Origin: Escherichia phage Dru_SM5
DNA length: 44,061 bases
Reading direction: 5' to 3' (one strand)
Sequence record: PP920550.1
Both the position numbers and the translations under genes were made by a program. Every line of letters starts with the position of its first letter. Position 1 is the first letter of the stretch. Of the stretch, positions 1 to 43,974 are shown piece after piece. The notes beneath the pieces were generated by a model. It worked only from the letters and a program-made list of their open reading frames with translations. It made no database searches and was not told the DNA's origin.

Positions 1-43
1 ATGTTGCCGATGGTCGGCGCATATGAACAAAAGGGCTTATATC

Positions 44-595
44 ATGGCAGAAATCAAAGTTAAGGGCCGTCGCGCCAAACTGGACGGACGAGTGGCAGTA
101 ACCCCGCGCCGTAAACCAGGCGAGCAAACAGAACATACCAATCTCGGACCTGAGATCGAATATGGCAAGCGTCGTAAAGGCGGCAAATGTGGGCGCCCGA
201 CCGACTACCGCACTGTGTATTGCGACCAGCTTCGCCGCTATTTTGCCGATGCCGTAGCCTGGCAGATCAACTACTCTGACAAGGGGGCCGCGCAAGTCAT
301 TCCCCGGAACAAGATGCCAACCTTCGGCAGATTTGCCGCTGAAATCGGCGTAGGCGTAGCTTGCCTGTACCGCTGGGCGCGAGCACATGAGGAGTTTGCC
401 GAAGCGATGGCGGACGCAATGGAACTGCAGAAAACTTTCCTGATGGAAGCCGGTGGCGTGACCATCGCGGCAGGCTTCGCTACCTTCCTACTTAAAGCTA
501 ACCACGGCGTCCGCGACGATGTACCGCTGGATGACGACGAAGATGATAACGGCGACGTCGTTGTCGAACCTTCCGGCAAAGGCCAGGGTGAATAA
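44..595 (+). CDS. putative terminase small subunit
   Basis: ORF directly upstream of and overlapping by 1 nt the terminase large subunit gene. ATG at 44 follows an AAAAGGG RBS; the track start at 23 has none. Acidic C-terminal tail. Function inferred from position only. Confidence 0.5.
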   Translation: MAEIKVKGRRAKLDGRVAVTPRRKPGEQTEHTNLGPEIEYGKRRKGGKCGRPTDYRTVYCDQLRRYFADAVAWQINYSDKGAAQVIPRNKMPTFGRFAAEIGVGVACLYRWARAHEEFAEAMADAMELQKTFLMEAGGVTIAAGFATFLLKANHGVRDDVPLDDDEDDNGDVVVEPSGKGQGE

Positions 596-5824: not shown

Positions 5825-5986
5825 TTAGTGGTTGTATAATTCGCCGCGTGCGTCGGCATCTTCCATTTGGTGTAGTGCGTGTTTCTGGTCCTGGCAAGGA
5901 ATCCAGCGTTCCTCTAATTTATGCCAGAAGTAAAACACCCCGTTATCCAGCTTAATCTCGGCAATACCGTTATTGAAAGTTAGCAT
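5825..5986 (-). CDS. hypothetical small protein
   Basis: Track ORF 5825..6040; ATG at 5986 follows a GAGGG RBS (53 aa). First gene of the reverse-strand pair. Confidence 0.4.
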   Translation of the reverse strand: MLTFNNGIAEIKLDNGVFYFWHKLEERWIPCQDQKHALHQMEDADARGELYNH

Positions 5987-6052
5987 TTTGTTACCCTCAT
6001 TGGTTGGTATGCAACCAATATATTGCAACCAATCCACCAATGCAAGCGAATT

Positions 6053-6080
6053 TTGCGATTATTTTTATCGCTGATAATAT
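6053..6080 (+). promoter_or_regulatory. candidate sigma70-type promoter for scaffold/capsid operon
   Basis: TTGCGA, 16 nt spacer, TAATAT, about 55 nt upstream of the ATG at 6136. Preceded by a cluster of GCAACCAAT motifs (5998-6046). Confidence 0.35.
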
Positions 6081-6135
6081 TAGAGGCGTGAAGTCGAGCG
6101 GGTGGCCTGCTCTGCCACAATCCCAGGGGGATAGC

Positions 6136-6837
6136 ATGAAACTTACTAAAGCAGAATATGACGCGTTGCCAGAAGGCATGAAGGCCTTATTTGTTGCCGA
6201 TGGTGACGGGTATAAATCAACGTTCATGACCGCAGAAGAAGTACAGGCGGAAATCAAGGGTCTGAAAGACAACAACGCGAAGCTGGTGAGCGAGAAGAAA
6301 GCAGAAGCCGAACGCCGCGCCGAAGCTGAGCGACTTGCGAAAGAGAAAGAGGAAGCCGCCGCGCGCAAAAATGGCGACCTCGAAGCGATCGACAAGTCCT
6401 GGAAAGATAAGTTTGCGAAACACGAAGCAGACACATCGGGAAAAATCGAAGCCTACCGCAAGCAGATCCACGACCTAACCATCGGCAGCGCTGCCAAAGA
6501 CCTGGCATCGAAGCTGTTCGGTAAGAATGCGGGCATCATGCAACGCCACGTAATGGATCGCCTGACGCTGGAAGACGGCGAAGACGGCAGCTTGAAAGTG
6601 CGTGTCTTGCAGGATGGCAAACCGTCCGCGCTGACTATGGAAGAGCTTGAAAAAGAGTTCCGTAATAACGCCGATTTTGCATCCGTCCTGGCTGGCACGC
6701 CAGCCGGTGGCGCGCCTAGCAAACCGACGCAGGTTGTCGAAGATGTGAAGTCGAAAATCACTATGGGCCATAGCTTCGGTATCACTGACCTTACGAAACA
6801 GGCAGGTGAAATCATCGCGAAGATGGGCGACGAGTAA
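6136..6837 (+). CDS. putative head scaffolding protein
   Basis: Track ORF starts at 6004; ATG at 6136 follows an AGGGGGA RBS. Charged, A/E/K-rich coiled-coil-like composition. Sits immediately upstream of the major capsid gene. Confidence 0.55.
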   Translation: MKLTKAEYDALPEGMKALFVADGDGYKSTFMTAEEVQAEIKGLKDNNAKLVSEKKAEAERRAEAERLAKEKEEAAARKNGDLEAIDKSWKDKFAKHEADTSGKIEAYRKQIHDLTIGSAAKDLASKLFGKNAGIMQRHVMDRLTLEDGEDGSLKVRVLQDGKPSALTMEELEKEFRNNADFASVLAGTPAGGAPSKPTQVVEDVKSKITMGHSFGITDLTKQAGEIIAKMGDE

Positions 6838-9053: not shown

Positions 9054-9647
9054 GTGGCTGAAGTCTACTCGTTCGCCGCCACTATTGCTACGTGGGTGGA
9101 TAAGACGAAGGAGAACAACGACAAGGCGGTGCGGGCGTACGGTATGCAAATACTCGGACGCCTGATCGAGATCTCCCCAGTGGGCGACCCGCGCCGATGG
9201 AAAATTAACAGGGCTTACGCGCTCGCCCGCCAGCACGCAAACAAGGTGAACGCCGCACAGCGTCGCAAGAATGGCGGCAAACTGAAGCGCGGTCAGAAGA
9301 AGCACGCCAGTGTGCTGGTATCATTCAAAACTAAAAACGGCAACGTCACGTTCCGCCAGCGCGGCTGGGCCGCGAAGAATTACACCGGGGGGCGCTTCCG
9401 GGGGAACTGGCAGGTGACGTTCGACCGCCCGGCTGTGGGCGCTATTGACCGCGTGGACAAGGCCGGAACGGCAACATTAGCCGCTGGGCGTGAAGTGCTG
9501 GCACATTACGATTCGAGTGAATACGGGTCGATCTGGTTTACTAACAACGTGCCATACGCGCAGCGCCTAGAGTATGGCTGGAGTAAACAAGCGCCCGCGG
9601 GGATTGTTCGCGTAGTAGCGGCAGAAATTAATTCGAAGGTGAAATAA
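9054..9647 (+). CDS. putative neck / tail completion protein
   Basis: GTG start after an AAGGGGG RBS. 197 aa. Position between head-tail joining and tail tube genes. Confidence 0.5.
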   Translation: MAEVYSFAATIATWVDKTKENNDKAVRAYGMQILGRLIEISPVGDPRRWKINRAYALARQHANKVNAAQRRKNGGKLKRGQKKHASVLVSFKTKNGNVTFRQRGWAAKNYTGGRFRGNWQVTFDRPAVGAIDRVDKAGTATLAAGREVLAHYDSSEYGSIWFTNNVPYAQRLEYGWSKQAPAGIVRVVAAEINSKVK

Positions 9648-11601: not shown

Positions 11602-11616
11602 TGAAGCGGGGCAGGC

Positions 11617-11637
11617 GGGACGTCCCGTTTTGTCCCG
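11617..11637 (+). terminator. terminator-like hairpin 1 (GGGACGTCCC palindrome + GTTTT)
   Basis: GCGGGACGTCCCG followed by TTTTGTCCCGCC, just after the frameshift-product stop. Confidence 0.4.
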
Positions 11638-11693
11638 CCTCTGTAAAACTGCATATCTACTCACTTCCACTGCATAAACTCAAAACGGGACAA

Positions 11694-11714
11694 GCGGGAC
11701 GTCCCGTTTTGTCA
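11694..11714 (+). terminator. terminator-like hairpin 2 (second copy of GGGACGTCCC + GTTTT)
   Basis: Near-identical GCGGGACGTCCCGTTTTGTC. Part of a roughly 76 bp tandem repeat with hairpin 1. Confidence 0.4.
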
Positions 11715-11734
11715 CGCCCTGTAAATATGCATAC

Positions 11735-11923
11735 CTATGCAGATTTCGTGCATAAACCAAACGGGACAGAAAGCGGGACAAACACGAGGCGGGACAAAAC
11801 GGGACAGCACCCCGTCCCCGCCAGTGCTGCCGCGGTTTTCAGCCGATCGGGACAGCGGGACAGCACCCCAGTCTTTCAGACTAGACGGGGGTCAATGGCC
11901 CCCCCTCGTCTGAGACTGAATAA
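11735..11923 (+). repeat. GGGACA-iteron + GC-hairpin element, copy A
   Basis: About 189 bp with TATGCAG..TGCATAAA, four CGGGACA iterons (11762-11808), two more (11849-11862), then conserved GTCTTTCAGACTAGACGGGGGTCAATGGCCCCCCCTCGTCTGAGACTGAATAA. Roughly 85% identical by eye to copy B. Confidence 0.8.
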
Positions 11924-26990: not shown

Positions 26991-28619
26991 TTAAATTTTC
27001 CTCGTTTTCTTAGCTTTCATGTATTCCATCAAGTCGTCCTGAATATCTCGCTTACTGTCTCGACGCTCGGCGACCAGTTCGTCCAGTGTACCGCGCGCCT
27101 GGATAATGTAGACGAATACCGGACGGGGGTGTCCTGCTTGCATCTGGCGAACCGGCCCGATACGTTCAACGATCTGCGAAAAGTGCTCAAAGTTCCAGGT
27201 ATCGGAGAAGATTGCCAGGTGGTGACCGCCGTCCTGCAAGTTAAGGCCGTGGCCGGCCGATGCCGGGTGTGCAAACATGATGGGTATCTCGCCCCTGTTC
27301 CACGCTTCCATATCCTTATTCCCCTGCTTACCTTTGCCCAACGCAACGCCGTGCGGAAATTTCTTCTTGAGACGCGCCAGGTCATGCTTGTACTGGTACG
27401 CAACGAGCAACGGGGCGCCGTTCAACTCCTCTACGATACTTTCCAGCGCGTCCAGCTTGGCGTCGTGGATCTTCACCCACTCGTCGGTCCGTTCGCCGTC
27501 TTCGTCGACTTTATACACGGCCCCGGAAGCAAGCTGAAGGCACTTAATAGTCTTCGAAGCAGCGTTCGCCGCCTCCACAGTTCCGCTTTCCAGTTCGGCA
27601 AATAGCTCCGCTTCGAACTGGTCATAAATCTTGCGGGCTTTCTTCGGCAGGTCCACAACAACAGGCGTATAGATTGGCTTGTCGCATCCGAAGTATTCAG
27701 CCGCGTCAACGGTGAGGGATACATCAGACAGGCGTTGTTGTATTTCTTTCTCGGAGTTCTTTAGCGGAGCGTGCTGCATCGTGAAGCTGCCGGGGTTAAC
27801 CGGCTTGCTAATGAACCAGCGATCGGTGAATGCCTTATAGCTACTGCCGAGACGCTCGCCACCGTCGACAAACCACGTCTGACCCCATAAGTCTTTTAAG
27901 CCATTAGGCGCGGGTGTGCCGGTCAGGTTAATCCAGCGCTTGACGTGCTTATGTGCAACCGCTGCCAGTGCGCGGGCGCGCTTACTCCCCTGCTTACTTC
28001 GATAGCCTTTCAGCTTAGGCGCGGGTGTGCCGGTCAGGTTAATCCAGCGCTTGACGTGCTTATGTGCAACCGCTGCCAGTGCGCGGGCGCGCTTACTCCC
28101 CTGCTTACTTCGATAGCCTTTCAGCTTAGTGGATTCATCGGCAACAACGACCGTAAAGGGCCACGCATCGCCGTAATAGTCAACCAGCCACTCAACCACA
28201 TCATAGTTAACACAAACCACGTTAGCGTCGCTCTCCAACGCGGCTATGCGGTCTTTCTCCGGCCCAGTGCCGTCTACGACCAGGAGGGATGAGAACCGCC
28301 ATTTCTCCTGCTCCGGGGGCCATGTACCTGACGCAACACGCAGCGGGGCCAGCACCAGTACGCGGTCGTCATGATGGGATAGGACGCCAGTCTGGAACAT
28401 TTTATTCAGCGCCCACATTGTCGCGCCGGTTTTACCGGATCCCATTGTCGCCCAGATATTACATCGCTTATGCTTGAGGATGAACGCGGTTATCAACTTC
28501 TGATATTCGCGGCGTCGGAATCGTGCCATATCTTTATTCCGCCTTTTTCCAGACTTCGGTTTCACTGTTCCAGTTCCTTTTTGTGGCGTCGTAGTTGGTG
28601 GCGTGTCCGATGTGGACAC
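26991..28619 (-). CDS. SNF2/DEAD-like superfamily 2 helicase
   Basis: Motif I WATMGSGKT, motif II VADEST, motif III LTGTPAP (duplicated by a 111 bp tandem repeat), plus C-terminal helicase motifs. Alternative start at 28529. Confidence 0.75.
   Translation of the reverse strand: MSTSDTPPTTTPQKGTGTVKPKSGKRRNKDMARFRRREYQKLITAFILKHKRCNIWATMGSGKTGATMWALNKMFQTGVLSHHDDRVLVLAPLRVASGTWPPEQEKWRFSSLLVVDGTGPEKDRIAALESDANVVCVNYDVVEWLVDYYGDAWPFTVVVADESTKLKGYRSKQGSKRARALAAVAHKHVKRWINLTGTPAPKLKGYRSKQGSKRARALAAVAHKHVKRWINLTGTPAPNGLKDLWGQTWFVDGGERLGSSYKAFTDRWFISKPVNPGSFTMQHAPLKNSEKEIQQRLSDVSLTVDAAEYFGCDKPIYTPVVVDLPKKARKIYDQFEAELFAELESGTVEAANAASKTIKCLQLASGAVYKVDEDGERTDEWVKIHDAKLDALESIVEELNGAPLLVAYQYKHDLARLKKKFPHGVALGKGKQGNKDMEAWNRGEIPIMFAHPASAGHGLNLQDGGHHLAIFSDTWNFEHFSQIVERIGPVRQMQAGHPRPVFVYIIQARGTLDELVAERRDSKRDIQDDLMEYMKAKKTRKI
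27904..28129. repeat. perfect 111-bp tandem duplication inside helicase gene
   Basis: Two identical 111 bp units (period verified 27904 to 28015). Encodes KLKGYRSKQGSKRARALAAVAHKHVKRWINLTGTPAP twice, in frame. Confidence 0.85.
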
Positions 28620-28634
28620 CAGTAGCCGTATTAA

Positions 28635-28820
28635 TTATTTTTGTTCCGCACGGTAGCGGCGCTGCCGTTCTCGTTCTGCCTTGTTACGGCACGACTTACA
28701 CTGCGCGCGATACCCGTCCGGGCTACGTGCTGTTTTGCCAGTGTACTTATGAAATTGCGATAGCGGTTTAACACAGCCGCATTGGCTGCAACGTTTTTCT
28801 TCAATCATTTTAACCCTCAT
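28635..28820 (-). CDS. small zinc-ribbon protein
   Basis: 61 aa with CSQCGC...CKSCRNK (two CxxC pairs) and a basic C-terminus. Confidence 0.45.
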   Translation of the reverse strand: MRVKMIEEKRCSQCGCVKPLSQFHKYTGKTARSPDGYRAQCKSCRNKAERERQRRYRAEQK

Positions 28821-29748
28821 TAATAAATGCTTTTATAAATTCAGCCGCTACTTGTGGAACGATGGCATTGCCGTAACCGCGCAGTCGTCCCACTCTGGCG
28901 GGTATCCCATTAGCCAGCGGGAATGTGCCGGATTCAACTGGCCTGAACTTCCCATCGCGGCATCCAAGCCAGTCAGCATCTGACCAGAAGCCGTTATGCG
29001 GATCGGATGTGCTATCCTCAGACCTTGCTCCGTCGAATAATCCAGGCGGTCGAATGTTCTGTCTTTCCCGTCTTTCCTTATCACTGTCCCCCCGCTTCCC
29101 TTGAAATCGTTCGCCGTCGGTGCGGCCCAGCTTGTCAGCACCGCGACGTCCTGCAAATTTTGCTGCCGTCCTGCTTCCTTGCGTTTTATTACTTTCTCCC
29201 AATCCGTGTAACCGTTCACCGTCCCGTTTTGCGCGCAAGGACTCGGCCAGGTTGTAAGCCCCGAAGAAAAGTCTGTCCCGTTTGTGCGGTGCGCCGACGC
29301 TACAAGCTGGGAGTACGGCAAACCCGACGGCGTAGTCTTCTCTTTCCAGGTGAGCTTGTAAATCACACATCCACGATTTTGCAATTGCTGGCGCAACCTG
29401 CTCCCCAAAGATGATTGTAGGGCGGCACTCGCTGACGAGGCGGAGGAACGTCGGCGCAAGGTGTCTTGGGTCGAACTGTCCAAGCTGACGTCCTGCCGTG
29501 CTAAACGGCTGGCACGGCGGGCTTCCCGTCCAGAGGCGCGTGCTTTCCGAAACGCCCGCAAGTCGGAGCGCGAGAGGCCAGCCGCCAATACCAGCGAAAA
29601 AATGACACTGCGTGAATCCGTCGAGGTCTTCGGGTTGCACATCCTCAATACTCCTTTCATCTACTATGCCATACGGGATATGGCCTTGTTTTATTAGCTC
29701 ACGCAGCCATGCTGCCGCGTGTTTGTCCCATTCGTTGTAATAGTTCAT
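28810..29748 (-). CDS. DNA cytosine-5 methyltransferase
   Basis: Motif I FAGIGG, motif IV GSPPCQPFS (catalytic PC), an ENV-like FGEQV, and motif X GYGNAIVP. Holds a charged low-complexity insert (K/R/G/D-rich) in the variable region. Confidence 0.75.
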   Translation of the reverse strand: MNYYNEWDKHAAAWLRELIKQGHIPYGIVDERSIEDVQPEDLDGFTQCHFFAGIGGWPLALRLAGVSESTRLWTGSPPCQPFSTAGRQLGQFDPRHLAPTFLRLVSECRPTIIFGEQVAPAIAKSWMCDLQAHLEREDYAVGFAVLPACSVGAPHKRDRLFFGAYNLAESLRAKRDGERLHGLGESNKTQGSRTAAKFAGRRGADKLGRTDGERFQGKRGDSDKERRERQNIRPPGLFDGARSEDSTSDPHNGFWSDADWLGCRDGKFRPVESGTFPLANGIPARVGRLRGYGNAIVPQVAAEFIKAFINEG

Positions 29749-29785
29749 AGTTTGCCTCTTTTGTGGCTACCGGCACACTATACCG

Positions 29786-35550: not shown

Positions 35551-36066
35551 TTAATCTTCCAGTTCGAAATAGGTTTCGACGATTTCTTTTAGCTCTGTGT
35601 GGAAGTCTTCGACGTCGTCATCTTCCAGCTTGGCGATTGATTTGATCTCGAACGATTCCAGCAGGTCGTCGAATTCGTCGTTCGCATCGTCGTCGTCACC
35701 ACCGGCAATAATCGCGGCATACTGTTTGATCTCGTCGCGCATCTCTGCCAGCGGATCGGCATCTTTCTTGCCTTTGCCTTTTGCCGGTGCTTTTTTAGAC
35801 TTAGCCGGTTTTTCATCTTCGGCATCGTCGTCTTCTTCTTCTACGACTTCTTTTTTGGCCTTACCCTTCGCCGGTGCTTTTTTAGCTTTAGCCGGTTTTT
35901 CGTCTTCGGCGTCATCGTCGCCATCTTCGACAACTTCTTTTTTGGCCTTAGACGGCTTCTTGTCTTCCTGCTTACCAACGGCAGCGCCAACGGTTTCATA
36001 ATGCTTTGCAATGGTTTCCAGTGCTACTACGCCGCGAGTGATCAGGTTTACGATTTGCTCAAACAT
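35551..36066 (-). CDS. zwitterionic repeat protein (first gene of leftward early operon)
   Basis: ATG at 36066 follows a GGAGA RBS (171 aa). Two tandem roughly 30 aa repeats of KKEVVE-DDDAEDEKPAK-KKAPAKGK-KK, encoded by roughly 99 bp tandem DNA repeats (about 35765-35960). Highly acidic C-terminus. Confidence 0.6.
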   Translation of the reverse strand: MFEQIVNLITRGVVALETIAKHYETVGAAVGKQEDKKPSKAKKEVVEDGDDDAEDEKPAKAKKAPAKGKAKKEVVEEEDDDAEDEKPAKSKKAPAKGKGKKDADPLAEMRDEIKQYAAIIAGGDDDDANDEFDDLLESFEIKSIAKLEDDDVEDFHTELKEIVETYFELED

Positions 36067-36406
36067 GGTATATCTCCGATTGGTTAAGTTTAGGTGTCGG
36101 CAGTTAACTTCGTCGGTGGCCTTAACATATTGCCAGGTTACGCGTTCTCCCGTTCGGGTAGTGGACCTGGTTATATAATCACGGTTGGGAATCCTGACAC
36201 TTCGATCCGTCCCCTGCGTTGCCCCTCTCCAGTTTGCGTCCTGCATCCTGTCGACGGAGTGAATGATAGATTGGTTGCAGGATGGGTGTCAACAACTAAT
36301 TTCAAAAAAAAGCGCCGAGGCAAAATGCACCGGCGCTAACCAATAAGAGACAATGAGACGGGAGTATTATTACACGCGTGCGCGCCCGTTTCAATATCCA
36401 AAGGAT

Positions 36407-36435
36407 TTGACACCGTGCAGTTTTGGGTGTAGTTT
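36407..36435 (+). promoter_or_regulatory. candidate rightward early promoter with operator-like palindrome
   Basis: TTGACA, 17 nt spacer, TAGTTT, followed by inverted repeat GTTGGT-catca-ACCAAC (36436-36452) and RBS CAGGAGA before the ATG at 36467. Confidence 0.45.
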
Positions 36436-36466
36436 CGTTGGTCATCAACCAACAGGAGACTGAATT

Positions 36467-36796
36467 ATGAATATCAAAGAAGCAATTGAAGTGTTATCTA
36501 ATGCAATCCGCGGCGAAGCGGGTAAATCCTGGTATTACACAAATGCGGTGGATACTCTGTTATTTGAAGTGTCCAGATTATCGCGTGCGGAGAAGGAGCT
36601 TACCGCGAAGCTGGAATTGCTCAACGGCACGGCAGCAAGCAAGCTGCAAAAACACAATGAAGAAATGGAAGAATACAAAAAGCAGGTTATCCGTTTGCGC
36701 AATGAGGGAAAGTCATGGGCAATGATCGCCGAGTTAACCGGAATTAATCAGAGCACAGTGCGCTCCTGGGTACGCAATAATAAAACTTCTAAGTAA
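36467..36796 (+). CDS. HTH DNA-binding protein (putative transcriptional regulator)
   Basis: 109 aa with a C-terminal helix-turn-helix-like segment GKSWAMIAELTGINQSTVRSWV. First gene after the early promoter. Confidence 0.55.
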   Translation: MNIKEAIEVLSNAIRGEAGKSWYYTNAVDTLLFEVSRLSRAEKELTAKLELLNGTAASKLQKHNEEMEEYKKQVIRLRNEGKSWAMIAELTGINQSTVRSWVRNNKTSK

Positions 36797-36806
36797 GGCC
36801 ACGGCA

Positions 36807-39071
36807 ATGAGCTTAATTAAATTCGCTGTAACACGACCCGCTAAAAAAGGCGAAAAAGCCAGGGCGGAAAACTTCCAGATGACTACCGAAGAGTTTTTCG
36901 AATTTATCAATGACGCGAAAGAAATCTCCTCGGTGCATATTAACAAAACGGAAGATAAAGCGGAGTATGCACGCCGCAAGCGTAAGGCCGATGGCATTGT
37001 GGCTTATACCAGTGACGGCTTACGTCGCAAGACCAGTGCGGTGGACCGCTCGATCCTGTTCTTCGATATCGACCGTACTGACACCCGCACCCTGCGCCGC
37101 TGCCGTAAGGCGTTCATCGACGCGGGACTGGAACATGTATTTCACACCACTACCGGCGACCGCCACCCGCTGAAAGGGGGCACGCGTTGCGCTCGTTTCC
37201 TGGTGCTCACCGATAAGCCTGTACCGGCTGAAGACCTGGGCCGCGTCCAGTATGCACTATTACACCAACTGGGTCTGTCAGATGTGGACTTCGACGATTG
37301 CACGAAAGACACAAACCGCCTGATGTACCTGCCACACCAGCAGTCTGTTATTAAGTGCCACTACGGCAAGCGTGCCCGCGTCCGTCGTCTGCTTCGCCTG
37401 GCTGATAAGCTGGGAATGGAAAAAGAGGAAGTACGACGCGAACTGACCCAGGGCGATGACGGCGTGGCGGACGGTATTCTGGATTGGTGCTTCCAGGCAG
37501 GATTCGAACCGCTGTCGTCCGGTCGTGGTTATGAAGTGCCATGCCCGAACGAACACCTGCACAGTGGTGAAGGGTCCACCGCTATCATGGTTAAGGATGG
37601 CGAGATCCGTTTCAAGTGTATGCACACCGGCAACGAGTGTTGCTCGGAACTGAACAGACACCAGCACCTGGCGCTACGTCTTATCGGGATCCCGGACCAC
37701 CTGAACGTCGAACCGCACAACATGTCACGTAAGCAAATCGCCGCCATCCTCCCAGGTCTGGACGACGAGGAAGTGGAATCGTGCTATGAACATATCGTTG
37801 ATGCGGTCGGAGACGGCGACGAGTACGGCGTGTGTACTGATGCAGACCTGGACAACGAGCCGGTCGCACTGTTCAGTAAGCACGACCCGATCATCGAAGG
37901 CCTGGTCAACTTCAAATCGACCTGGTATCTCGCCGGTGAGTCGAACATTGGCAAGTCGTTCTACGTGCTGGGCCAGATGGCGTCAGTATCTGCCGGTATT
38001 CCGTTCGGCGGTGCGAAGGTCGTCCAGTCTCATTGCTTCTATTTCGATGCGGAAGGTGGTGAGGCCCCCAACCAGCGTAAAGAAGCATTGCAGATTAAAT
38101 ACGAGCACGACCTGGACAAGCTGCACATTATAGACCTGCAGTCACGCGGCTGGGATATCACCAGCAAATCAGGCTTGCGCGAAGTTATCAGCTTTATCAA
38201 CCGCACCGCTAACGGCGAACCGGTTGGCCTGGTGGCGTTCGACTCACTCAACCAGACTGTTGCGTTGCGGTCCGCTGATGCTAAACCGTTCGACGAGAAC
38301 AACGCCAGCGATATGGGTGAAGTGGTCAAAGCGCTGAAGGCCATCGCGGAAAATACAGGTGGCAGTGCGGGCGTCATCCACCACCCGGCTAAAGGTGCAA
38401 ACGGCAGCAGAACCCCCCGAGGGTCCGGCGCGCTGCATGGTGCTGTCGATTCTGCGTTCTTCCTGGAACAGCCGGACGACAACCAGCCCGGACAATTGAA
38501 CCTGTATCATGAGAAGTCACGTAACGGCATCAAGCAAGCGCCGCGCGGCTTCGTCCTGCTCAAGTGCAAGGTGAAGGTGGATCTCCGCAAGTCAGAAGCG
38601 TTCGAGGCGCACCAGTCCACCAGCACCGGGCCAGACTTCGGCGACGTGGTTGCCGGATGGGACGTCAAGCCGATTGCCTCCACGCCACGCGACGAGACTC
38701 TCTACCTCGTACCGGTTGCCCTGGCACCGTTCGCTATTGAACAGGCGAAGGCCTCGGGCAAAGCAGCAGTTAAAGAAGAGAACACCGCCGGACCGCGCAA
38801 CGAAAAAGAGAAAGTGCTTTATGCGGCACTGGAAAAACTGATGGAAGATAACCCGGACCATACTGGATTCAGTAAATCGGCAATTGTCCGCCAGGCTGGG
38901 CTGGCAAAAGGTGGCACTTCGACGAAGGCAATCGACGATATGGTGGAGCGAGGAGTGATAGGTTTTTACACCGATCCGCACACTGGGGCCATCTATGGGT
39001 CGTCTAATTTGGTCATCAAATCGGATATCCCTATCACGCTTTCAGCGACCGATGACGACTTAAAAGATTAA
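36807..39071 (+). CDS. DNA primase/helicase (primase-polymerase-like N-terminus + P-loop ATPase)
   Basis: N-terminal FFDIDRTD (AEP/prim-pol-like DxD), a Cys/His zinc-binding segment, Walker A GESNIGKS and Walker B LVAFDSLNQ. 754 aa. Confidence 0.6.
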   Translation: MSLIKFAVTRPAKKGEKARAENFQMTTEEFFEFINDAKEISSVHINKTEDKAEYARRKRKADGIVAYTSDGLRRKTSAVDRSILFFDIDRTDTRTLRRCRKAFIDAGLEHVFHTTTGDRHPLKGGTRCARFLVLTDKPVPAEDLGRVQYALLHQLGLSDVDFDDCTKDTNRLMYLPHQQSVIKCHYGKRARVRRLLRLADKLGMEKEEVRRELTQGDDGVADGILDWCFQAGFEPLSSGRGYEVPCPNEHLHSGEGSTAIMVKDGEIRFKCMHTGNECCSELNRHQHLALRLIGIPDHLNVEPHNMSRKQIAAILPGLDDEEVESCYEHIVDAVGDGDEYGVCTDADLDNEPVALFSKHDPIIEGLVNFKSTWYLAGESNIGKSFYVLGQMASVSAGIPFGGAKVVQSHCFYFDAEGGEAPNQRKEALQIKYEHDLDKLHIIDLQSRGWDITSKSGLREVISFINRTANGEPVGLVAFDSLNQTVALRSADAKPFDENNASDMGEVVKALKAIAENTGGSAGVIHHPAKGANGSRTPRGSGALHGAVDSAFFLEQPDDNQPGQLNLYHEKSRNGIKQAPRGFVLLKCKVKVDLRKSEAFEAHQSTSTGPDFGDVVAGWDVKPIASTPRDETLYLVPVALAPFAIEQAKASGKAAVKEENTAGPRNEKEKVLYAALEKLMEDNPDHTGFSKSAIVRQAGLAKGGTSTKAIDDMVERGVIGFYTDPHTGAIYGSSNLVIKSDIPITLSATDDDLKD

Positions 39072-39182: not shown

Positions 39183-39206
39183 TGTAGTGTAAATATAATG
39201 AATAGT

Positions 39207-39393
39207 TATGCAGTTTTATTGCATAAAGTAAGCGGGACAGAAAGCGGGACAAACAAGAGGCGGGACAAAGCGGGACAGCACCCCCGTCCCGCCCCGGATG
39301 ACGCGGCCTGGCGAGGAGCGGGACAGGCGGGACAAACCCAAGTCTTTCAGACTAGACGGGGGTCCATGGCCCCCCTCGTCTGAGACTGAATAA
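39207..39393 (+). repeat. GGGACA-iteron + GC-hairpin element, copy B
   Basis: About 187 bp paralog of 11735-11923: TATGCAG..TGCATAAA, four CGGGACA iterons, two more, then a near-identical conserved hairpin block. A TATAAT box at 39195-39200 sits just upstream. Confidence 0.8.
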
Positions 39394-39548
39394 AATCCGG
39401 GGATTGCAAAATACACGGCAGCATGATGCGAAGGGCGGTCGTCGATGAACCAGGCAACCAATGCGGGTTGCATTATGCTGAGTGAAAAATGCAGTTTGCA
39501 GTTGCAGCAGATAGCGATCAACTTTTTCATGCGCGTGATTAATATTGG

Positions 39549-39577
39549 TTGCATTCAGCCTGGAGCCTTGATATATT
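39549..39577 (+). promoter_or_regulatory. candidate promoter for the 39606 operon
   Basis: TTGCAT, 17 nt spacer, TATATT, then RBS ATGAGGA and the ATG at 39606. The -35 hexamer lies inside an ATTGGTTGCAT motif. Confidence 0.4.
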
Positions 39578-39605
39578 GGTTGCACACCAACATGAGGACT
39601 GAACA

Positions 39606-39932
39606 ATGAGAGCGATTATCTGGAATTACGCAATGGCTATGGCGGCGGCACAAGAAGCGGCGGAGTTCGCCGGTGAAGGAGCGGAAGCGGTCGAAAGACT
39701 ATCGGCAGCGTGGTCCGTTGTTCGCGTTACGCAGCAGGCCATCGCCTGTATGCTGGAGCGCCGCTTCGACACTATGGCAGAGATTCAGCCACTGGCGAAC
39801 GCTATCCAGGATTACGCGCTTGCCTTTGCCCGTGAGCGCCTGGCGTATCGCTTCGGGATCGGCGAGACGGCAGTGACTAACGTCGCCCGGATTAAAGCCC
39901 AGCGTGAGCTATTCTCCCAGCTTGCGAAATAA
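39606..39932 (+). CDS. hypothetical protein
   Basis: 108 aa with RBS ATGAGGA. Ala-rich. Confidence 0.55.
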   Translation: MRAIIWNYAMAMAAAQEAAEFAGEGAEAVERLSAAWSVVRVTQQAIACMLERRFDTMAEIQPLANAIQDYALAFARERLAYRFGIGETAVTNVARIKAQRELFSQLAK

Positions 39933-42771: not shown

Positions 42772-42831
42772 CCGCCACAATAGGTACCGTGGTATATTGT
42801 CCTCGGCCCCATAATCAGGAAGTGGATTAAT

Positions 42832-43974
42832 ATGCACCCGCAAACTAAAATCACTGACGAGCAATTGATCGCCGAGTTGCAATCAGGCACTACCGCGAAA
42901 GAGATTGCGAAGAAGTACGGCCTTTCCCTACGAAACGTCTACATGCGCAAAGCCCGCCTGTCGAAGAAAGGTATTGGTCACGGTAACGATGCCGTAATCC
43001 GTAAGCGCGTTGCCGATGGCTTCGGCGTTAAGCGCGTATCCGCCCTGGTGCGCGGCAATGGTGAAGAGGTCATGTCGTGGGTCATCACCGAGCAGGACAA
43101 GGAGCGCCAGCTTGAAGCAATGCGCGCCGTTGTCGAGGGCATGAACAGCGAAATCACACCGGCAGCGCCCGTAAAAGCCCCGCCAGTTCCGATCCAGGCG
43201 CTCGACTTGCTCAACCTGTACACCGTGTCAGACTTCCACCTGGGCATGTTGGCATGGGGCGAGGAGACTGGCGAAGACTGGGATATGGCGATCGCCGAAG
43301 ACCTGTTCTACCGCTGGTTTGTCGAAGCCTTCGCCCGCGCACCGGACGCAGGCACTGCCGTAATTAATATCCTCGGGGATATGGCCCACTTTGACAGCCT
43401 CGATGCCGTCACTCCAGCCAGTGGTCACGTACTGGACGCCGACACCCGCTACCAGAAACTGGTCCGATACATGATTCGCATGGTGCGCAACGTCGTCGAA
43501 CTGGCGCTGCAAAAACACCACAAAGTAAAACTGCTAATCGTCCAGGGAAATCATGACGAGTCGGGTATGATTTGGCTGGCTGAGATGTTCAATACTCTGT
43601 ACGAGAACGAGCCGCGCGTCGATGTGGATACGTCACCGGACGTTTACAAAATGGTGCAGCACGGTAAGACCACGCTGTTTTTCCACCACGGGCACAAAGC
43701 GCGATTCGATGCTATCGAGCAGGTTATGATTTCTAAATTCAGACAGGCTTTCGGATCCAGTGAGTACAGCTACGCGCACGTAGGCCACTTGCACCACCAG
43801 AAGATTGTAGAATCCCGCAACATGATTGTTGAACAGCACCGGACGCTCGCAGCGAAAGACGCCTACGCCAGTCGTGGCGGTTGGATGTCAGGTCGCAGCG
43901 CCAACGTCATTACCTACAGCGCCAACTACGGCGAAGTAGCGCGCTTAACCATTAGCCCGGAAATGTTGAAGTAA
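42832..43974 (+). CDS. HTH domain fused to calcineurin-like metallophosphoesterase
   Basis: N-terminal HTH-like TAKEIAKKYGLSLRNVYMRK. C-terminal phosphoesterase motifs GDMAHFD, QGNHDE, HHGH and GHLHH. Confidence 0.5.
   Translation: MHPQTKITDEQLIAELQSGTTAKEIAKKYGLSLRNVYMRKARLSKKGIGHGNDAVIRKRVADGFGVKRVSALVRGNGEEVMSWVITEQDKERQLEAMRAVVEGMNSEITPAAPVKAPPVPIQALDLLNLYTVSDFHLGMLAWGEETGEDWDMAIAEDLFYRWFVEAFARAPDAGTAVINILGDMAHFDSLDAVTPASGHVLDADTRYQKLVRYMIRMVRNVVELALQKHHKVKLLIVQGNHDESGMIWLAEMFNTLYENEPRVDVDTSPDVYKMVQHGKTTLFFHHGHKARFDAIEQVMISKFRQAFGSSEYSYAHVGHLHHQKIVESRNMIVEQHRTLAAKDAYASRGGWMSGRSANVITYSANYGEVARLTISPEMLK

Follow-up and report, generated by a model that had tools for sequence, protein, structure and literature searches.

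A perfect 111-nt tandem duplication in the SNF2-like helicase gene of Escherichia phage Dru_SM5 is very probably a retained assembly overlap

The helicase gene and its tandem repeat

The stretch of DNA analyzed here (referred to below as the window) comprises 44,061 nt from Escherichia phage Dru_SM5 (PP920550.1), a Dhillonvirus (HK578/SO-1-like siphovirus of E. coli). The features at the locus in question, together with the point at which the record opens, are as follows:

26991-28529, minus strand: gene of an SNF2-like accessory DNA helicase, 512 aa in the assembly (ORF list, Pfam and PDB matches)
27904-28014: copy 1 of the 111-nt unit (repeat finding, Tandem Repeats Finder and string identity)
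28015-28125: copy 2 of the 111-nt unit, identical to copy 1 (repeat finding, Tandem Repeats Finder and string identity)
28126-28129: TTAG, a 4-nt continuation of the match past the two full units (string comparison)
1-595, plus strand: opening point of the record, with position 1 lying 22 nt upstream of the first ORF (small terminase, 23-595)

The full minus-strand ORF 26991-28619 encodes 542 aa, while the start ATG of the orthologs, which encode 474 aa, corresponds to window position 28529. With one copy of the unit removed, the 512-aa and 542-aa forms become 475 and 505 aa respectively. Tandem Repeats Finder reports positions 27904-28129 as one array with a period of 111, 2.0 copies, 100% matches, no indels, and a score of 452, and with the TTAG extension the exact repeat measures 115 nt. 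The unit consists of 37 codons, is in frame, and encodes KLKGYRSKQGSKRARALAAVAHKHVKRWINLTGTPAP twice; the 20-mer across the copy-copy junction is CCTTTCAGCTTAGGCGCGGG. The repeated 37 residues start directly after motif II (DEST) and run through motif III (LTGTPAP).

An earlier note on this DNA had described a perfect 111-bp tandem duplication at 27904-28129, an in-frame 37-aa repeat inside an SNF2-like helicase, and a second LTGTPAP motif III right after motif II. This description holds in every part: the repeat itself by Tandem Repeats Finder, repeat finding, and string identity, the reading frame and protein family by ORF translation and the Pfam SNF2-rel_dom match, and the position of motif III by alignment to yeast Snf2. 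A perfect repeat of this length is far beyond chance, since related phage DNA from other sources, 1.1 Mb in all, has no perfect tandem repeat of at least 100 nt. Between the unit and its orthologs there are 8-10 nucleotide differences, and between the two copies none.

Pfam SNF2-rel_dom (PF00176) matches the protein with an E value of 1e-10 (41.7 bits vs. a cut-off of 24.9). Motifs I (GSGKT), II (DEST), and III (LTGTPAP, extended to LTGTPAPN) are recognizable, motif III occurring twice as assembled, and the yeast Snf2 alignment takes in GxGKT, DExx, and LTGTPxxN, the unit falling between DExx and LTGTP. By sequence the protein also matches PDB entries of Snf2, INO80, SWR1, and Sulfolobus (SsoRad54-like) Rad54-like ATPases; its C-terminal stretch matches Snf2, INO80, and Rad54-like structures, and PF00271 is precomputed for some of its homologs. 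The features that define the SNF2 family are therefore present: an ATPase domain at the N terminus that contains motifs I, II, and III, and a helicase lobe at the C terminus. In carrying SNF2-rel_dom, motifs I-III, and a matching C-terminal lobe it resembles the SNF2/Rad54-like SF2 helicases; unlike them, it is small (~475 aa) and lacks chromatin-reader domains. Because a separate gene at 36807-39068 encodes the replicative primase-helicase, the SNF2-like protein is predicted to be an accessory helicase. The phage also encodes a Gp2.5-like SSB/annealing protein and an exonuclease.

Without the 37-aa insert, the helicase shares 99% protein identity with its 474-aa orthologs. Compared with the orthologous genes, dS is ~0.27 and dN/dS ~0.03, the latter indicating strong purifying selection on the gene. 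Given such a dN/dS, one would not expect a viable isolate to have a 37-aa insert beside the catalytic motifs. Some orthologs contain an intein with homing-endonuclease domains (PF05203, PF05204, PF14528) in Walker A (GSGK|C...HN|T) and are consequently ~790-828 aa long. We considered these inteins as a possible link to the duplication and rejected them, as they are inserted in Walker A, away from motif III.

Neighboring regions

Both flanks of the helicase gene are mosaic (window 28628-29762 and around 27006). Further features in the window that bear on its general makeup are:

28810-29748, minus strand: C5-cytosine methyltransferase ORF upstream of the helicase (PF00145, E value 4e-17)
28848-29660, minus strand: second ORF of 270 aa in another frame, overlapping the methyltransferase ORF
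11604-11904 and 39198-39375: pair of repeat-rich non-coding regions with ~80% similarity, separated by 27.5 kb
11607-11768: tandem array of 79 nt x 2.1 in the first repeat-rich region
35757-35950, minus strand: diverged tandem repeat of 87 nt x 2.2 (80-84% identity) in an acidic/lysine-rich ORF

The methyltransferase ORF has no match in the Dhillonvirus genomes KS_S9 or SO-1 and is ~85% identical in Kagunavirus/K1ind-type phages; the window lacks the C5-methyltransferase found downstream of the helicase in SO-1 (gp32). The overlap of the two ORFs was considered as a sign of poor sequence, a reading that we rejected because the region is ~85% conserved in Kagunavirus-type phages. The two repeat-rich regions correspond to "region A" and "region B" of SO-1, which contain direct, inverted, and palindromic repeats. 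At the site homologous to 35757-35950, related phages have arrays of 87 or 90 nt with 2.2-3.2 copies, and on account of this varying copy number the array looks like a genuine variable coding repeat.

Search for the duplication in related phages

About 160 phage records match the window at 90-95% nucleotide identity, and none at more than 95%. In all 40 relatives listed among the matches, the helicase region measures 1,502 nt, vs. 1,614 nt in the query. We then used a query of the rotated unit and a 36-aa peptide across the junction, and with these all 157 related phage records map to a single unit; each match is split in two, with both parts aligning to one and the same 111-nt unit, and in single-copy orthologs the same 115 nt maps onto both window segments. 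The comparison with orthologous helicases that the earlier note had proposed as a check thus finds every relative to be single-copy. An apparent ~1-kb insertion near the helicase in phages Zar3M and PTXU06 lies outside the helicase gene and is irrelevant here.

The search was extended to the IMG/VR, metagenome, and GTDB genome collections with a degenerate DNA pattern for the duplicated junction GTPAP|KLKGY, which gave no matches in any of the three, while the control pattern for the single-copy junction matches at least 120 IMG/VR contigs. Of 7,977 protein homologs, the best 120 have a spacing of 34-44 aa between motifs II and III and one LTGTP each, and none of these 120 has two copies of motif III. 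Exact look-ups of the helicase (542, 512, 475, and 505 aa) and of the neighboring DNA polymerase and methyltransferase found no independent assembly of this phage on record.

A circular record, re-opened at the small terminase gene

Genomes of this genus are headful-packaged and give circular assemblies (PMC9022532, PMC8407724), and in Dhillonvirus assemblies, which circularize, the small terminase is by convention placed first (PMC9022532). In phage SO-1 the end and the start of the window adjoin, with one HSP covering both, and position 1 of the window is also position 1 of the KS_S9, SM_W22, SM_A8, and SM_S24 records, all of which come from one laboratory. Because the window starts 22 nt before the small terminase and its ends are contiguous in SO-1, the record is a closed circle whose opening point was set, manually or by a script, once it had been assembled.

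The length of the repeat, 111 nt, equals the final odd k of the suspected assembler. With Shovill defaults and reads of ~150 nt, SPAdes is run with k = 31, 51, 71, 91, and 111 (PMC6776766). Dru_SM5 belongs to a series with KS_S9, SM_A2, SM_A8, SM_S24, and SM_W22 (PP920550-PP920555; PMC11846954), and in a separate paper the same group sequenced phages as 150-mer paired-end reads and assembled them with Shovill at default settings (PMC11074155). The papers on the series name no assembly method, and the pipeline is taken here from that other paper (PMC11074155). We infer that the window was produced by the laboratory and pipeline behind these Shovill-assembled phages, and that the junction between the two copies is without read support.

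Overlaps of length k are known from other assemblies, both as artificial overlaps of 127 bp in SPAdes contigs and as direct terminal repeats of 55, 77, and 99 bp in metagenomic viral contigs (PMC5923482, PMC8116208). The repeat in the window is similar to these in that it is perfect, has the length of a final odd k, occurs in a circular or circularly permuted genome at an arbitrary break, and is private to its record. It differs in that its copies are internal and in tandem, the contig having been rotated without trimming, and therefore mimic a change in a coding sequence, and in that k is 111 instead of the familiar 55, 77, 99, or 127.

Other length discrepancies in published phage records may be mentioned here. 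MT884015 (vb_EcoS_bov25_1D) is 44,747 nt long in its paper (PMC8407724) vs. 44,670 nt in the current record, and the difference of 77 nt, a standard SPAdes k, suggests a k-mer overlap that was later trimmed. MT884013 (bov16_1) is 44,745 nt in the same paper (PMC8407724) vs. 44,700 nt in the current record. PQ843332.1 (Escherichia phage P-GXEC-L2P5), in which the helicase matches at two places, is 88,607 bp long, ~2x the size usual in the genus, and is probably a dimeric (concatenated) assembly.

Duplications of the same length in sibling genomes

Six sibling genomes, together with SO-1 from another laboratory, were run through Tandem Repeats Finder. The arrays of period 111 found in the siblings are:

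KS_S9 (PP920551), 36217-36438: period 111, 2.0 copies, 100% matches, within CDS 36112-36741
SM_A2 (PP920552), 9105-9328: period 111, 2.0 copies, 100% matches
SM_A8 (PP920553), 42844-43069: period 111, 2.0 copies, 100% matches, within CDS 42796-43092
SM_W22 (PP920555), 5890-6111: period 111, 2.0 copies, 100% matches, within CDS 5855-6373
SM_S22 (PP627283), 39478-39700: period 111, 2.0 copies, 100% matches, within CDS 39374-39739
SM_S24 (PP920554), 37891-38166: period-111 array inside a natural 54-nt repeat region, ambiguous

A perfect two-copy duplication of 111 nt is therefore present in five of the six siblings, at unrelated positions, and Tandem Repeats Finder found no period-111 duplication in SO-1. 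We also counted each unit in all eight genomes. Each has an additional copy only in its own record and occurs once or not at all in the other seven, save that the unit of SM_S22 lies in a naturally repeated region, with three copies there and two elsewhere. Past the two full units (222 nt), the match continues for 0 nt in KS_S9, 2 in SM_A2, 4 in SM_A8, 0 in SM_W22, and 1 in SM_S22.

On this comparison, it is not credible that biological duplications of exactly 111 nt arose independently in six genomes, each at an unrelated site, and an artifact of a shared pipeline explains all of them. The deposited proteins of KS_S9, SM_A8, SM_W22, and SM_S22 probably contain spurious 37-aa repeats as well. 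In SM_A2 (1-552) and SM_W22 (2-595), the small-terminase CDS is annotated as truncated (189 nt), and the rest is given as a misc_feature "similar to hypothetical protein", which may reflect a disrupted frame or faulty annotation where these records begin.

Proposed origin of the duplication

We propose that the duplication is the end-overlap (k = 111) that remained when a circular contig from Shovill/SPAdes was opened anew at the terminase gene, and that it is absent from the phage itself, a reading to which we assign a probability of about 95%. The phage is circularly permuted and headful-packaged, so that its short reads would assemble as a cycle. De Bruijn assemblers turn a cycle into a linear contig in which the same k bases stand at the beginning and at the end, and k would here be 111, the last value that SPAdes uses under Shovill defaults with ~150-nt reads. 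The contig would then have been re-opened just upstream of the small terminase, with the old ends joined and the overlap left untrimmed. Copy 1 (27904-28014) would represent the last 111 nt of the original contig and copy 2 (28015-28125) its first 111 nt, the original contig beginning at 28015 (or being the reverse complement) and ending at 28014. The two copies would thus have come to lie side by side at an arbitrary contig break, by chance within the helicase gene, and the true neighbors at the junction would be CCTTTCAGCTTAGTGGATTC and AAGCCATTAGGCGCGGGTGT. Because 111 is 3 x 37, the overlap would leave the reading frame intact in any case, so that motif III looks duplicated. The corrected genome is almost certainly 43,950 bp long, with a helicase of 475 aa that is single-copy as in all relatives. 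An assembly artifact was among the options raised in the earlier note, and it is strongly supported by the match to k = 111, by the circular, re-opened record, and by the 111-nt duplications in the siblings.

Alternative explanations

A genuine and very recent duplication, which the earlier note had also raised as possibly inactivating or modifying the helicase, would have arisen by replication slippage or illegitimate recombination between TTAGs 111 nt apart, doubling the helix-strand unit that contains motif III, with one copy looped out of the fold and the change fixed by a plaque-purification bottleneck or by selection. Like microhomology-mediated tandem duplications in phages and bacteria, the window has perfect head-to-tail copies and a shared TTAG at the boundaries, and an extension of 4 nt is expected by chance in only 1.6-2.7% of cases (0.016 per genome analytically, 0.027 empirically). 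Unlike them, the repeat has the length of an assembler parameter, is accompanied by duplications of equal length in siblings, and has no independent occurrence. Considering the window by itself, the microhomology on one side and the period equal to k on the other would leave a real duplication and an artifact roughly balanced. Among the five sibling artifacts, however, the extension is likewise 4 nt in SM_A8, and it is 2 nt in SM_A2. With extensions of 0, 2, 4, 0, and 1 nt in the siblings, one such case in seven genomes is unremarkable, and TTAG is best read as a coincidence, not as microhomology. The intact frame, which might otherwise speak for a real duplication, is automatic for 111 nt.

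Two further points are in keeping with a real duplication. An extra 111 bp would be tolerated by headful packaging (PMC9022532), and an AlphaFold2 model of the duplicated protein (50 homologs, mean pLDDT 77.7) retains the RecA-like core: the native helix (183-192) and strand (198-203) are formed by copy 2, and copy 1 (134-171, pLDDT 25-45) is pushed out as a loop beside motif II. A fold-compatible arrangement is thus at least conceivable from the model, which nevertheless says little on viability because its outcome is largely set by the homologs aligning to copy 2. Against a real duplication stand the dN/dS of the gene, the return of the identical period at five or six unrelated positions in the siblings, and the junction, found in none of the three collections, the 157 related records, or the best 120 of 7,977 homologs. 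Single-strand-annealing recombination is expected to collapse perfect direct repeats, and the annealing protein and exonuclease that the phage encodes should, we infer, quickly do so with one of 111 bp. With the same period recurring at unrelated sibling sites, we regard a genuine recent duplication as very unlikely; that a real duplication should match k by accident, giving a viable Dhillonvirus helicase with two copies of motif III, one of them looped out, is slightly less probable still. If it were nonetheless true, the duplication might have been selected, for instance by altering recognition by a host defense that senses the replication/repair machinery; escapers of SECphi18 were mapped to SSB and DNA polymerase, not to this helicase (Stokar-Avihail et al.).

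The retained overlap also accounts for the data better than two other readings, both of which we consider to have a negligible probability. One, likewise suggested in the earlier note, is a naturally variable-length or contingency region in which the number of 37-aa copies varies between phages or within populations. Apart from the repeat itself nothing points to such a region, and it is excluded by the constant single LTGTP and the motif spacing of 34-44 aa in the 120 homologs, by the mapping of the 157 related records to one unit, and by a junction that occurs in no relative, with 0 matches vs. at least 120 for the single-copy junction. The other is a different technical origin, either a duplication at a fragment junction during in vitro assembly and rebooting of the genome or a mis-traversed loop in the assembly graph. 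The laboratory does join PCR fragments of Dhillonvirus genomes by NEBuilder HiFi assembly (PMC11846954), but the deposited genomes are described as wild-type library phages, and a constant 111 nt at unrelated sites in six or seven genomes corresponds to the assembler k, not to overlaps designed into primers.

Implications for phage genome records

The artifact belongs to a class of internal tandem duplications of exactly k that result from rotating an untrimmed circular contig, and the same defect seems to be present in at least five public GenBank records of the series, each with a false 37-codon insertion or a false intergenic duplication. Such internal duplications are invisible to checks for terminal repeats (e.g., the DTR test of CheckV), and where k is a multiple of 3 the reading frames stay open, so that the artifact passes the quality control of gene calling. 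A simple screen would be to look for perfect two-copy tandem repeats with a period equal to a common final k (55, 77, 99, 111, 127). For Dru_SM5, whatever annotation, protein entry, or structural or functional inference builds on a "duplicated motif III" would be spurious. The biological consequence is small, as the helicase is almost certainly an ordinary one, and the value of the finding lies in the curation of the records.
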